From UHGV virus genome UHGV-0069434: 13,657 nucleotides of DNA; one strand, 5' to 3'. The notes below the pieces were generated by a model, which saw only the letters and a program-made list of their open reading frames with translations, was not told the origin of the DNA and did not search any database. Shown in pieces: positions 3,403 through 7,071 of this stretch (position 1 is the first letter of the stretch; every line of letters begins with the position of its first letter). The position numbers were made by a program, and so were the translations under genes. This DNA is from a virus.

Positions 3403-4071
3403 TTAATTGTGTCGCTTAAGGGTTTGTGACCGTCTGATTAAGACCTTTCCAAAGACCATAAACCGGTGTTCATTTTCGCTGGTAATTCCCCATTCACGGT
3501 AAATCTGGTTATCAGAAATCACCAGTAGTTTGTCAGGTATCATTTGCAGTCGTTTGACATAAATTTTATCATCAAAACCAAATACATAGATACCATCTCC
3601 ATCAAACTGATTGATACTGACATCAACGAAGATGAGATCTCCTGGCTCAATGGTTGGACACATACTGTCCCCACGAACGTTGATAACTTTAATGTGATTG
3701 GCTGGCCGTCCGCCAAACATCGATACAGCATTATCAGTTCTGTATTCAATGGCATGAATCACATCAATGACATCACCGCCCTGGATAAGGCCATTTCCCG
3801 CACTGGCACTGACATCCAGCATTTCAATACGGAATACATCCTTCACCTGCGCAACATCCTCACTAATACTGTTTTTACATACAGTATTACTTTTGACGTC
3901 TGAGGTAAAGAGATCAGCAATATCAACACCTAAGCTCCTGGCAATATTACTCAGGGCTTGTTCAGTGAATTGTTTCTGCTTACCTGTTTCCAGTCCTATT
4001 GCTTCAGCGAGATCGGCGATTTTCATGTTCTTCGCCTGGCGAAGTTGTCTGACTCGGTTTCCTATGTTCAT
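3403..4071 (-). CDS. cI-like prophage repressor, 222 aa: N-terminal XRE-type HTH plus C-terminal S24 (LexA-like) autopeptidase domain
   Basis: N-terminus NRVRQLRQAKNMKIADLAEAIGLETG is a typical HTH; C-terminus has the S24 motif VRGDSMCPTIEPGDLIFVD and a candidate Ala-Gly cleavage site (SASAGNG). Divergent from a cro-like gene, with operators on both sides. Confidence 0.85.
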   Translation of the reverse strand: MNIGNRVRQLRQAKNMKIADLAEAIGLETGKQKQFTEQALSNIARSLGVDIADLFTSDVKSNTVCKNSISEDVAQVKDVFRIEMLDVSASAGNGLIQGGDVIDVIHAIEYRTDNAVSMFGGRPANHIKVINVRGDSMCPTIEPGDLIFVDVSINQFDGDGIYVFGFDDKIYVKRLQMIPDKLLVISDNQIYREWGITSENEHRFMVFGKVLIRRSQTLKRHN

Positions 4072-4168: not shown

Positions 4169-4429
4169 ATGCAATCACCATTACGGAATATGCGTAAGGC
4201 GCACGGATTTACTTTGCAGCATGTTGCTGCTGGCGTTCAGGTCAATCCAGCGACGCTGAGTCGTATTGAAAGACTGGAACAAATTCCATCTATCGATCTT
4301 GCAGAACGTCTGGCCAATTTTTTTAAGGGTGAAATCAGCGAAATGCAGATTCTTTATCCGGCACGTTTTCAATCTAGCCAAAACCAGAATGGGTTTAAAC
4401 CACAGGAACAGGAGGTAAGCCGTGGGTAA
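4169..4429 (+). CDS. Cro-like HTH (XRE family) regulator, 86 aa
   Basis: ORF track; HTH signature GFTLQHVAAGVQVNPATLSRIERLEQIPS; divergent from the repressor; GGAGG 4 nt upstream of ATG. Confidence 0.75.
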   Translation: MQSPLRNMRKAHGFTLQHVAAGVQVNPATLSRIERLEQIPSIDLAERLANFFKGEISEMQILYPARFQSSQNQNGFKPQEQEVSRG

Positions 4430-4973
4430 TCATCACTGGAAAGTGGAAAAACAGCCTGAGTGGTACGTGAAAGCTGTCAGAAAAACTATCGCGGCGTTGC
4501 CGGGGGGTTACGCTGAAGCTGCTGAGTGGCTGGATGTAACAGAGAACGCATTATTTAACCGCCTTCGTGCCGATGGCGATCAGATTTTCCCGCTGGGATG
4601 GGCAATGATTTTACAACGTGCTGGTGGCACTCACTTCATTGCCGACGCTGTGGCGCAGTCTGCAAATGGCGTCTTTGTGTCTCTTCCTGACGTCGAGGAT
4701 GTGGACAACGCCGATATTAACCAGCGCCTGCTGGAAGTCATTGAACAGATTGGCAGTTATTCCAGACAGATTCGTTCGGCAATCGAAGACGGTGTGGTGG
4801 AACCGCATGAGAAGACAGCAATTAACGACGAGCTGTATCTCTCAATTTCGAAGCTGCAGGAGCATGCAGCACTGGTCTACAAAATCTTCTGCGCTCCAGA
4901 AAAGAGTAACGCCCGCGAGTGTGCAGCTCCGGGCGCCGTGGCGTGTCGTGACTGTGGAGAAACTAACGCATGA
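4422..4973 (+). CDS. CII-like early regulatory protein, 183 aa
   Basis: GTG start with GGAGG about 7 nt upstream; overlaps cro stop. Region [36 protein letters not shown] resembles the HTH and following helix of lambda CII as I recall it; position immediately after cro fits. Confidence 0.55.
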
Positions 4974-5308
4974 ACAGTTTAACAACACACTACCGTCGCT
5001 CGCAACTGATTGCGCTTCCTGTACCGGGTGGAAAAGCGAAGGTGGAGTATTGCTATGCAGTAAATGTACCAGGTGACAGGGAAATTGTAACCCACAGCTT
5101 TGCTGAGTGGGCTGTGGGAGATTTCAACCGGCAGAAGGAGACAGTCCTTTGCGACAAGTTAACCGCTGGTTCAAAGATCACTACGGAGTGCCCGTCAGAG
5201 TCATTCGTTGGGAGCCGGAAACACAACGAGTTATCTACCTCCGCGAAGGCTATGAGCATGAGTGCTTCAGCCCGCTCGAACAGTTTCGTCGTAAATTCAG
5301 GGAAATAG
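4970..5308 (+). CDS. Hypothetical protein, 112 aa in track; the N-terminal roughly 60 aa look protein-like, the C-terminal half is Ser-rich low complexity
   Basis: ATG overlaps the preceding stop (ATGA). The compositional change after about residue 60 coincides with the start of a better-looking ORF in another frame (5149..5328). Confidence 0.4.
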
Positions 5309-5328
5309 AGGTCGGTCATGAGCACTAA
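5149..5328 (+). CDS. Small protein, about 59 aa, alternative frame ([58 protein letters not shown])
   Basis: TTG at 5149 is preceded by AAGGAG (5135..5140) at 8-nt spacing. The translation has balanced, protein-like composition. Track lists the frame from GTG 5107, which lacks an SD. Stop overlaps the replication gene start by 11 nt. Confidence 0.4.
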
Positions 5329-6175
5329 ATTAACCGGCTATGTATGGGATGGTTGCGCTGCGTCAGGCATGAAATTATCCAGCGTGGCAATTATGGCCCG
5401 CCTGGCTGATTTCAGTAATGACGAAGGTGTGTGCTGGCCATCAATTGAAACTATTGCCCGTCAGATTGGCGCGGGGATGAGTACCGTCAGAACGGCTATC
5501 GCACGGCTGGAAGCAGAAGGCTGGTTAACGCGTAAGGCGCGTCGCCAGGGTAACCGCAATGCGTCGAATGTTTATCAGCTTAACGTTGCGAAGCTTCAGG
5601 CAGCGGCATTTTCTCAACTGTCAGATTCTGACCCGTCAAAATCTGACGCATCAAAATCTGACACGTCAAAATTTGATGTGTCGAAATCTGGCAAAAAAGC
5701 GGGTTTTCACCCGTCAGAATCTGGCGGGGATCCGTCAGTAAAATCAAAACAAGATCCACAAGTAACTTCAAAACCCTCTTGTCCGGTTGCGGCGCAACCC
5801 GACCCTGAAGTTGTGATTACCGACCAGGCAATTTTGGTTCTGACCCATTTGAACCAGATCAGCGGATCCCGGTATCAGAAATCAAAAACATCCCTGGAGA
5901 ACATCCGCGCCCGACTGCGTGAGGGATACAGCGTTGCAGACCTGCAACTCGTTATCGACCTGAAGCATGAGCACTGGCACGAGAACGACGAGCAGTACCA
6001 GTACATGCGGCCGGAAACGCTGTTTGGCCCGAAGAAATTCGAGAGCTATCTGCAAAGCGCTACCCGCTGGGATCAGAAGGGACGGCCTAAACGCGCTGAC
6101 TGGGGTGCGAAAAAGCGCGATGTGATGGCTTTTGGTCCGGTTGATACAACGATTCCAGAGGGGTTCAGAGGATGA
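5318..6175 (+). CDS. Phage replication initiator / replisome organiser (lambda O-like role), 285 aa
   Basis: N-terminal HTH-like region (VAIMARLADFSNDEGVCWPSIETIARQIGAGMSTVRTAIARLEAEGWL). C-terminal region (LTHLNQISGSRYQKSKTSLENIRARLREGY...HEHWHENDEQYQYMRPETLFGPKKFESYLQSA) resembles the conserved phage replication-protein C-terminal domain. Tandem iterons lie inside the gene. Confidence 0.7.
   Translation: MSTKLTGYVWDGCAASGMKLSSVAIMARLADFSNDEGVCWPSIETIARQIGAGMSTVRTAIARLEAEGWLTRKARRQGNRNASNVYQLNVAKLQAAAFSQLSDSDPSKSDASKSDTSKFDVSKSGKKAGFHPSESGGDPSVKSKQDPQVTSKPSCPVAAQPDPEVVITDQAILVLTHLNQISGSRYQKSKTSLENIRARLREGYSVADLQLVIDLKHEHWHENDEQYQYMRPETLFGPKKFESYLQSATRWDQKGRPKRADWGAKKRDVMAFGPVDTTIPEGFRG
5621..5726. 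repeat. Tandem 15-bp iteron-like direct repeats (core GTCAAAATCTGAC), putative phage origin of replication inside the initiator gene
   Basis: Read directly: CCGTCAAAATCTGAC (5633..5647), GCATCAAAATCTGAC (5648..5662), ACGTCAAAATTTGAT (5663..5677), GTGTCGAAATCTGGC (5678..5692), plus partial copies at 5621..5632 and 5711..5725. Each core has internal dyad symmetry (GTCA...TGAC). The repeats encode SKSD-type peptide repeats and generate the repetitive ORF artefacts at 5559..5771. Confidence 0.55.
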
Positions 6176-7071
6176 CGTTAAACAAATATTGCCAGGCGCT
6201 GGCGGCACTACGTAGCAAACCAGCCCACCAACTGAAAGAAGTTGGCGATCAGTGGCGGACGCCGGATCTGCTTTTTTGGGGGATCAACGCGCTATTTGGT
6301 CCATTAGTTTTGGACTTGTTTGCAGACGACGACAACGCGAAATGCCCGGTATGGTACACCGCCGAAGATAACGCGCTGGTGCAGGATTGGGCGGAAATGT
6401 TGGATTCAATCGGCGGGGCCGCATTCGGTAATCCACCCTATAGCCGCTCTCAGTACCACGAGAAACAGGCGATCACCGGCATGACCCACATCATGGATCA
6501 CACAATGGAGATGCGTGAAAAGGGTGGGCGTTATGTGTTCCTCATTAAAGCGGCGACAAGTGAAACATGGTGGCCGGAAGACGCCGATCACATCATGTTT
6601 ATTCGCGGTCGCATTGGTTTCGATCTCCCTGTGTGGTTTGTTCCTGCCGACGATAAGCAGAAACCCACAGGTGCTTTCTTTGCTGGTGCAATCGCTTTGT
6701 TCGACAAGACCTGGCGCGGCGAGCGTTTCAGCTACATCAGCCGTACCGATCTGGAGGAAAAAGGGAAGGCGTTTATGTCACTGGTCGAATTTGCCGCGGG
6801 AAAGGTTCAGCCACCAGCCACCATGGTGCCAGAGCAAGAAGAACCCATTGTAGCGCCAGCAGTATTACCTGATGTGGATTCGCGTATCTGGCCGCTTGAG
6901 GTTGGTCTGGTGTTCAACCAGGTTGAGGGGGCGGATTCTCTGGACGCATCGCAGCAGAACAAGCTGAAAGCGAACATTAACCAGCTGTGGCTTGAGCGTA
7001 TGCCAACCAGCGAAATCATTACTACTGCTGGTGGACTGGTCAGCAGCATGCAGGGGGCCATCAATGCGTGA
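6172..7071 (+). CDS. Phage-type N6-adenine DNA methyltransferase (phage Dam family), 299 aa
   Basis: LDLFADDDNAKCPVWYTAEDNALVQDWAEM...FGNPPYSRS matches the phage N6A-methyltransferase family signature including the NPPY catalytic motif. ATGA overlap with the replication gene stop. About 100 aa of C-terminal extension beyond the usual domain size. Corresponds in position to the yfdM fragment of CPS-53. Confidence 0.8.
   Translation: MTLNKYCQALAALRSKPAHQLKEVGDQWRTPDLLFWGINALFGPLVLDLFADDDNAKCPVWYTAEDNALVQDWAEMLDSIGGAAFGNPPYSRSQYHEKQAITGMTHIMDHTMEMREKGGRYVFLIKAATSETWWPEDADHIMFIRGRIGFDLPVWFVPADDKQKPTGAFFAGAIALFDKTWRGERFSYISRTDLEEKGKAFMSLVEFAAGKVQPPATMVPEQEEPIVAPAVLPDVDSRIWPLEVGLVFNQVEGADSLDASQQNKLKANINQLWLERMPTSEIITTAGGLVSSMQGAINA

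Follow-up and report, generated by a model that had tools for sequence, protein, structure and literature searches.

The window, a stretch of 13,657 nucleotides (nt) from the virus genome UHGV-0069434, belongs to an e14/SfII-type lambdoid prophage of Escherichia coli or Shigella, of which it represents the immunity and replication region. Downstream of a CII-like gene it carries two open reading frames (ORFs), here called frame A (112 amino acids, aa) and frame B (59 aa), which lie on the same strand and overlap over a large part of their length. This raises the question whether one or two genes are encoded here. A preliminary description, made from the sequence alone, had left three explanations side by side: two short overlapping genes, a programmed frameshift joining the N-terminal part of frame A to frame B, or a frameshift mutation or sequencing error in a single gene. 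Comparative evidence of selection in both frames favors the first of these. Judged from sequence evolution, the locus very probably represents a genuine out-of-frame gene overlap in which both frames are translated and selected, frame A being ymfM and frame B a gene for a small protein of the DUF4222 family.

The positions previously given for both frames, the Shine-Dalgarno (SD) sequence and the TTG codon all proved to be correct. Frame A extends from an ATG at 4970 to a TAG at 5306-5308, and its ATG overlaps the TGA stop codon of the YmfL/CII-like gene (ATGA, 4970-4973). Frame B, which is the -1 frame relative to frame A, is preceded by the SD sequence AAGGAG (5135-5140) and, after a spacer of 8 nt, starts with TTG at 5149 and ends with TAA at 5326-5328. 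The two frames share 160 nt (5149-5308), and the Ser/Thr-rich tail of frame A begins at the start of frame B. The ATG of the following gene, which encodes an O-like replication initiator, is located 10 nt past the stop of frame A and precedes that of frame B by 8 nt. Two sets of homologs were compared: 64 distinct, near-identical E. coli alleles (from IMG/VR prophage contigs, K-12 and strain E4), and a divergent set of 46 species-representative genomes plus 8 phages, which yielded 49 unique sequences with 67-98% aa identity in DUF4222 and a nucleotide divergence of up to 46%.

Frame A shows 97.3% identity over 112 aa to YmfM of E. coli K-12 (NC_000913.3, b1148), which is annotated as "cell division inhibitor YmfM" and has the same neighbors, lying between ymfL and an O-like replication gene. 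Profile searches of frame A gave no match in Pfam or NCBIfam; the protein belongs to PHROG 1170, and residues 1-59 alone match phrog_20047. The length of the ORF and the position of its stop codon are kept in about 45 species, and the alignment with distant homologs is good over the first 52-60 residues only. An exhaustive search with residues 1-59 revealed a small family of YmfM N-terminal domains (YmfM-N) with lengths clustering at 59-68 and 111-118 aa. The standalone proteins of 59-68 aa are encoded by phages of Providencia, Hafnia and Citrobacter and were also seen in metagenomes. In Providencia phage PSTRCR_117lys, a YmfM-N protein of 63 aa is followed directly by O, and in Hafnia phage yong2 and Citrobacter phage phiNP a YmfM-N protein of 59 or 65 aa directly follows the cII-like gene and DUF4222 is found 750-850 nt further on. 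Yersinia phage YeP2 encodes a 53-aa protein of the YmfM-N type (L222:807-986), the TGA of which overlaps the ATG of the DUF4222 gene (968-1168); this is the 'unextended' version of the ymfM/DUF4222 pair. An AlphaFold2 model of frame A had an overall predicted local distance difference test (pLDDT) score of 52, too low for searching by fold, with 55-73 in the N-domain and below 40 for residues 68-112, and the tail is thus predicted to be disordered. In an exhaustive protein search, YmfM residues 19-50 (window 5024-5119) gave weak, repeated matches to large proteins with Listeria-Bacteroides repeats (Flg_new), hinting at a small beta-rich fold.

Frame B matches the Pfam family DUF4222 (PF13973) with an E-value of 8.6e-19 and 67.3 bits (cut-off 27), covering profile positions 3-52 of 53. 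A tblastn search detected it in 111 phage records with identities as low as 33%, and its AlphaFold2 model (pLDDT 83) is a confidently folded small beta-barrel. In other E. coli genomes it is called by the Prokaryotic Genome Annotation Pipeline (PGAP), for example as WP_001250269.1 in NZ_CP104516, and it is missing from the annotation of K-12 MG1655. A purine-rich SD sequence is present 8-12 nt upstream of the frame B start in all 52 homologous loci. The start codon itself differs between lineages: most use ATG and some GTG, and TTG is confined to the e14/SfII type. In the window, as in a few other alleles, frame B is open back to a GTG at 5107, from which 73 aa would be encoded. Position 5119 is an A in the window and a T in 53 of the 65 sequences (the 64 alleles and the window). 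Because this T creates a TGA in frame B in most alleles, the conserved start is TTG 5149. GTG 5107 was rejected as start codon for the same reason and because the polymorphisms between 5107 and 5148 follow frame A. Folding of the region 5100-5200 gave a z-score of -1.87. A hairpin listed in Table 1 might mask the SD sequence and the start codon of frame B, an assignment of low confidence; SD-containing hairpins of this kind are found at the B start in several lineages, though not in all.

The allele set revealed on which frame selection acts along the locus. From 4970 to 5148, 19 synonymous and 7 non-synonymous changes were counted in frame A. Within the overlap (5149-5308), the changes were 15 synonymous and 6 non-synonymous when read in frame B and 2 synonymous and 19 non-synonymous when read in frame A, and all common polymorphisms were located at third positions of frame B codons. 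These counts indicate that selection at the amino-acid level switches from frame A to frame B at about position 5149. The N-domain of frame A and the frame B protein are thus each under amino-acid selection.

A split of a single ancestral gene by a frameshift mutation or a sequencing error would account for nothing more than the superficial look of the locus, in which one frame appears to degrade where the other begins, and we consider it extremely improbable. The 64 E. coli alleles share the two-frame layout with K-12 MG1655, with phages SfII and SfIV and with the representatives of about 45 other species, and this conservation excludes a sequencing error. Furthermore, each half is a member of a family of its own, and the two families are distributed separately.

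A programmed -1 frameshift near 5130-5150, which would yield a YmfM-N-DUF4222 fusion protein of about 118 aa, agrees with the position of B in the -1 frame of A and with the SD-like AAGGAG just upstream; the frameshift site of dnaX also has an SD-like sequence upstream. Moreover, a few fused proteins of 102-119 aa are found in public assemblies. Nevertheless, the evidence from heptamers, start codons, stop codons, fusion junctions and unlinked genes speaks against this explanation, and we rejected it as highly improbable. No slippery heptamer of the type X XXY YYZ, strict or relaxed, is present in frame A between 5050 and 5200, and B possesses its own SD sequence and start codon in every lineage. 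In ST64B, mEp390 and Stx2_KH16-043 a B-frame stop codon lies directly before the start, and in most e14-type alleles the frame is open for just 27 nt upstream of it because of the TGA at 5119-5121. Finally, the two modules are unlinked in phiNP, yong2 and PSTRCR_117lys, and the fused proteins do not share a junction. The latter were predicted from public assemblies (P0030, P0052, P0059 and P0065) and have four different junctions, which is why we interpret them as sporadic indels or assembly errors; P0065, which stands for 14 sequences, may be a real variant with a deletion of 1 nt.

The preliminary description had noted that frame A looks degraded from the start of frame B onward. With respect to composition this holds true, the tail being Ser/Thr-rich, but the tail is not simply decaying, as it is actively kept open. 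In the 49 unique homologs, the register of A was without a stop codon over B codons 1-52 in every case, and the +2 register contained 3.7 stop codons on average. When each B protein was recoded synonymously with the codon usage of the flanking genes, the mean probability of an open A register was only 0.09 per sequence. The avoidance of stop codons can be traced to individual sites. At B positions 4, 18 and 28, Val, Leu or Ile precedes a codon starting with A or G, so that NTG or NTA at these positions would introduce TGA or TAA into frame A. Only codons ending in T or C were found there (position 4: GTT 16, CTT 23, CTC 7, ATT 1, ATC 2; position 18: GTC 26, GTT 22, ATT 1; position 28: GTT 47, GTC 1), barring one Gly replacement at position 28, and on a neighbor-joining tree 18 changes between T and C and none to A or G were inferred at these positions. 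Internal controls behaved differently: at B position 14, which is followed by Pro, GTG accounted for 10 of 17 Val codons, and at position 31, which is followed by a codon starting with C, CTG accounted for 26 of 47 Leu codons. The Arg codon following Leu31, Arg32, is always CGN, and Arg51 is mostly encoded by AGR.

The end of frame A is conserved in the same manner. B codon 53 is NTA in 44 of 49 homologs and is followed by G or A, which places TAG or TAA in frame A. This codon is ATA in 31 of 32 cases of Ile and TTA in 10 of 11 cases of Leu, despite the replacement of Ile, Leu and Val by one another; in the flanking genes, ATA makes up 9% of the Ile codons. Among the roughly 50 unique loci, the ATG of the next gene is located at +10 from the A stop in the majority and at +4 to +12 in a few more. 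The B stop, in contrast, is found at variable distances of 8 to 91 nt beyond the ATG of the O-like gene. Fourfold-degenerate sites of B within the overlap, which correspond to second codon positions of A, showed a variability of 1.1-1.9 bits, and because they vary freely the amino-acid sequence of the A tail is unconstrained. The avoidance of stop codons is specific to the ymfM context, since DUF4222 genes without ymfM upstream contain ordinary numbers of stop codons in the +1 register (RgdR, 7 in 100 codons; phiNP, 6 in 56; EKP1, 3 in 63). In summary, the data show that selection on the A tail concerns only its openness and the fixed position of its end. Over the shared nucleotides, selection is thus exerted in both frames, and the internal gene has start signals of its own.

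It could be argued that only a YmfM protein of about 60 aa and DUF4222 matter and that the long frame A is a by-product causing nothing but an annotation conflict. Consistent with this, the A tail is free of amino-acid constraint and PGAP does not call the 112-aa ORF; in addition, the antisense frame is open in 35 of the 49 homologs, demonstrating that open frames can arise without selection. We consider this explanation improbable, as the A register is open in 49 of 49 sequences versus 9% expected, synonymous codons that would create stops are avoided site by site and differently from the internal controls, the stop position of A is kept through the Ile/Leu/Val changes, and DUF4222 genes outside the ymfM context have a closed +1 frame. 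As regards the antisense strand, a 90-aa ORF (5053-5325, minus strand) was considered as a further gene and rejected as a by-product of the in-phase antisense frame. This frame of DUF4222 is free of stop codons in the 35 homologs mentioned because the gene lacks TTA, CTA and TCA codons. In Klebsiella phage ST101-KPC2phi6.3 the antisense ORF is annotated as a coding sequence (CDS), likely a false gene call.

The arrangement of start and stop codons suggests how the overlap might work. Initiation at the ymfM ATG would probably be coupled to termination of ymfL at the ATGA, and further downstream the A stop lies 10 nt from the ATG of O in most of the unique loci. After the N-domain of about 55 aa, ribosomes would read 52 further codons through gene B and terminate on the SD sequence of O, and B would be translated independently in the -1 frame from its own SD sequence and TTG. 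The A tail would then be kept open since ribosomes must travel in frame A to reach the start of O. This would establish a chain of translational coupling from ymfL via ymfM to O, and ribosomes moving in frame A may also unmask the hairpin at the B start. We infer this coupling from geometry alone and give a role of the A tail in translational coupling to the replication gene close to, though not quite, an even chance.

Alternatively, the tail might be a functional, disordered, Ser/Thr-rich extension of YmfM, the presence or composition of which matters rather than a passage of ribosomes alone. The avoidance of stop codons fits this possibility equally well, the tail is predicted to be disordered and is Ser/Thr/Ala-rich in divergent homologs too, and the construct causing filamentation (see below) held the full 112-aa ORF. 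We nevertheless regard it as rather unlikely. Standalone homologs of 59-68 aa in other phages indicate that YmfM-N works without a long tail, the second codon positions of A vary freely, and the A stop keeps its distance of 10 nt to the next ATG even in loci in which the end of B moves, which points to a role in positioning. Phages of the SfV type, moreover, fuse the same register to the next gene. The fixed stop position and the existence of homologs lacking the tail are the reasons why we favor a tail that serves as a conduit for ribosomes over a functional disordered segment. Regarding the SfV-type arrangement, SfV orf37 (L172:1052-1888), ST64B sb41 (L171:1058-2215), the Hafnia yong2 gene 'Ash' (L166:2796-3479) and a further locus (L216) have TGT at B codon 53 and lack the A stop. 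The ORF in the ymfM register continues there into a gene of the Phage_ASH/Rha type, the Pfam domain of which begins directly after the DUF4222 stop. DUF4222 lacks an annotation in these phages and is overlapped out of frame by the long annotated proteins. In Hafnia, the two starts located a few nucleotides apart share a single SD sequence.

Several points weigh against a translated and selected overlap with a coupling function of the A tail. We infer the translation of both frames from their evolution only, and a tail without amino-acid constraint is arguably not a functional protein segment. No significant RNA structure in need of opening was seen in the region of the O start (z = +0.59). At B codon 53, the conserved TA adjoins the SD sequence of O and may be kept in part for O initiation and not for the termination of A. 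Furthermore, a truncated frame A exists in one singleton E. coli allele (G5228T) and in a cluster of 88-aa proteins (P0027), which indicates that truncation of A is tolerated at least occasionally. Finally, kinship among the homologs is taken into account by the tree-based count of 18 changes alone.

Pairs of phage genes sharing DNA out of frame are known from Rz/Rz1 of lambda and from the overprinted genes of phiX174. As in those cases, two frames of one DNA with starts of their own form a compact layout that is conserved across relatives here. In Rz/Rz1 both products are constrained in their amino-acid sequence, whereas in the present overlap B holds all detectable constraint and the tail of A is merely kept open. 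Translational coupling in polycistronic operons makes use of overlapping or closely spaced stop and start codons and normally links adjacent ORFs. At this locus, by contrast, the upstream ORF would have to cross an entire embedded gene to arrive at the next start. The overlap is a new example of a known arrangement, with an unusual selection signature.

The only characterized DUF4222 protein is RgdR (ECs1581) of enterohaemorrhagic E. coli O157:H7, a prophage-encoded regulator with non-specific DNA binding that acts on LEE (locus of enterocyte effacement), the type III secretion system (T3SS) and motility (Flockhart et al., 2012, PMC3378721). It is described as activating LEE1/T3SS and repressing motility, and its RGD motif, which lies at the start of the core, is reported to be functionally important (PMC3378721). 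RgdR and B share 41% identity over 49 aa, and both match PF13973. RgdR is longer (99 aa) than B, owing to N- and C-terminal extensions, and its RGD motif (M-R-G-D-I) is absent from B (M-R-Q-V-N), which places B outside the RgdR-type subgroup. The +1 register of rgdR is full of stop codons, so that, unlike in B, there is no overlapping gene. Activation of LEE/T3SS cannot be assumed for B. What the two have in common is their location directly 5' of the replication gene of the respective element, a primase gene in Sp7/CP-933C and the O-like gene here. In the Sakai prophage Sp7, RgdR (L220:3720-4019) overlaps the start of a P4-type primase gene by 4 nt.

The coordinates of the overlap and of the surrounding genes are compiled in Table 1. 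The genes of the early-right operon are arranged in the order cro, ymfL/cII-like, ymfM, DUF4222 and O. In homologous E. coli loci the gene at the position 4422-4973 is annotated as ymfL, and counterparts of the O-like gene in related phages are annotated as replication protein O or primosomal protein. The nucleotide identity of the stretch to phages SfII and SfIV and to several E. coli phages is 95-98%. Of 5,426 complete E. coli genomes, about half contain the locus, and about 2,000 cover at least 80% of a 501-nt query.

Table 1. Features of the ymfM/DUF4222 locus and its neighborhood in the window.
Feature	Coordinates	Strand	Basis or remark
cI-like repressor	3403-4071	minus	
cro-like gene	4169-4429		
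ymfL-like (CII/CP76 family) gene	4422-4973	+	Pfam Phage_CP76 4.9e-14; NCBIfam phage_reg_YmfL 7e-50
Frame A, ymfM ortholog, 112 aa (PHROG 1170)	4970-5308	+	Identity to K-12 b1148; phrog_1170 3.8e-70
N-terminal domain of YmfM, about 55-59 aa	4970-5146	+	E. coli alleles, standalone homologs, phrog_20047
Possible hairpin GAAGGA (5134-5139)/UCCUUU (5145-5150)	5134-5150	+	Low confidence
Shine-Dalgarno sequence AAGGAG of frame B	5135-5140	+	8 nt 5' of TTG 5149
Frame B, gene for a small DUF4222 protein of 59 aa, starting with TTG (PHROG 1343)	5149-5328	+	PF13973
Dual-coding overlap, 160 nt	5149-5308	+	Residues 60-112 (tail) of A read in B's +1 register
Stop codon TAG of A (5306-5308), which touches or overlaps the GAGG Shine-Dalgarno sequence (5308-5311) of the O-like gene	5306-5311	+	
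O-like replication initiator gene (helix-turn-helix domain HTH_36 and Phg_2220_C)	5318-6175	+	Pfam

Within the O-like gene, between its helix-turn-helix and C-terminal domains, about four tandem 15-bp repeats (TCTGACACGTCAAAA) are located at 5627-5690, which are presumably origin iterons as in lambda O. An Rfam search gave no match in the A/B region, the only hit being a spurious mir-5880 match on the iterons (5619-5693), and a scan for promoters and terminators revealed nothing above the expectation from shuffled sequences. Just 3' of the O-like gene a mosaic junction was observed: the window continues with an ORF of 299 aa (6172-7071), and the otherwise near-identical strain E4 carries in this place (L001:2857-3501) a gene for a PerC-family regulator followed by one for an N-6-adenine methyltransferase.

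The overlap bears on the annotation of these prophages. The reference genome, K-12 MG1655, lists only ymfM and PGAP-annotated genomes only DUF4222; all 22 of the listed entries covering the locus contain a DUF4222 CDS and no ymfM. As both genes are real in our interpretation, each annotation misses one. The consequences extend to experimental work on ymfM. According to the bioRxiv version of the study, ymfM (b1148) of e14 is the SOS-inducible division inhibitor SfiC, the ymfM "open reading frame" was cloned into pBAD24, a ymfM deletion was also used, and expression of the K-12 clone caused filamentation and inhibited formation of the Z-ring (Ansari et al., bioRxiv 10.1101/2020.11.19.390815). 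This K-12 gene is orthologous to frame A, and a single gene is assumed at the locus both in the preprint and in the annotation of K-12. The overlap is not discussed in the literature found, in which the ymfM study is represented by its bioRxiv version. Given the layout of the locus, the pBAD24 clone as described there would also hold the SD sequence, the TTG and the first 53 of B's 59 codons, i.e., the whole Pfam domain, and the ymfM deletion would remove both genes.

Because the constructs, as far as the preprint describes them, affect both frames, the published ymfM phenotypes (SfiC filamentation and loss of the Z-ring) cannot yet be assigned to one of them. As a speculation, which we consider unlikely though worth stating, SfiC might be, or might need, the unannotated 59-aa DUF4222 beta-barrel protein inside ymfM, the tail of YmfM being a sequence-free 'translation conduit'. 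Mutants specific to each frame are needed before a mechanism of ymfM/SfiC is sought. The location of DUF4222 genes directly 5' of replication genes in lambdoid and P4-like elements provides a lead to the function of this family. In a wider context, the locus illustrates clearly, in a natural setting, how an ORF can be under selection for its openness and a fixed end while its amino acids drift, and a constraint on openness alone escapes standard tests based on homology or on the ratio of non-synonymous to synonymous substitution rates (dN/dS).

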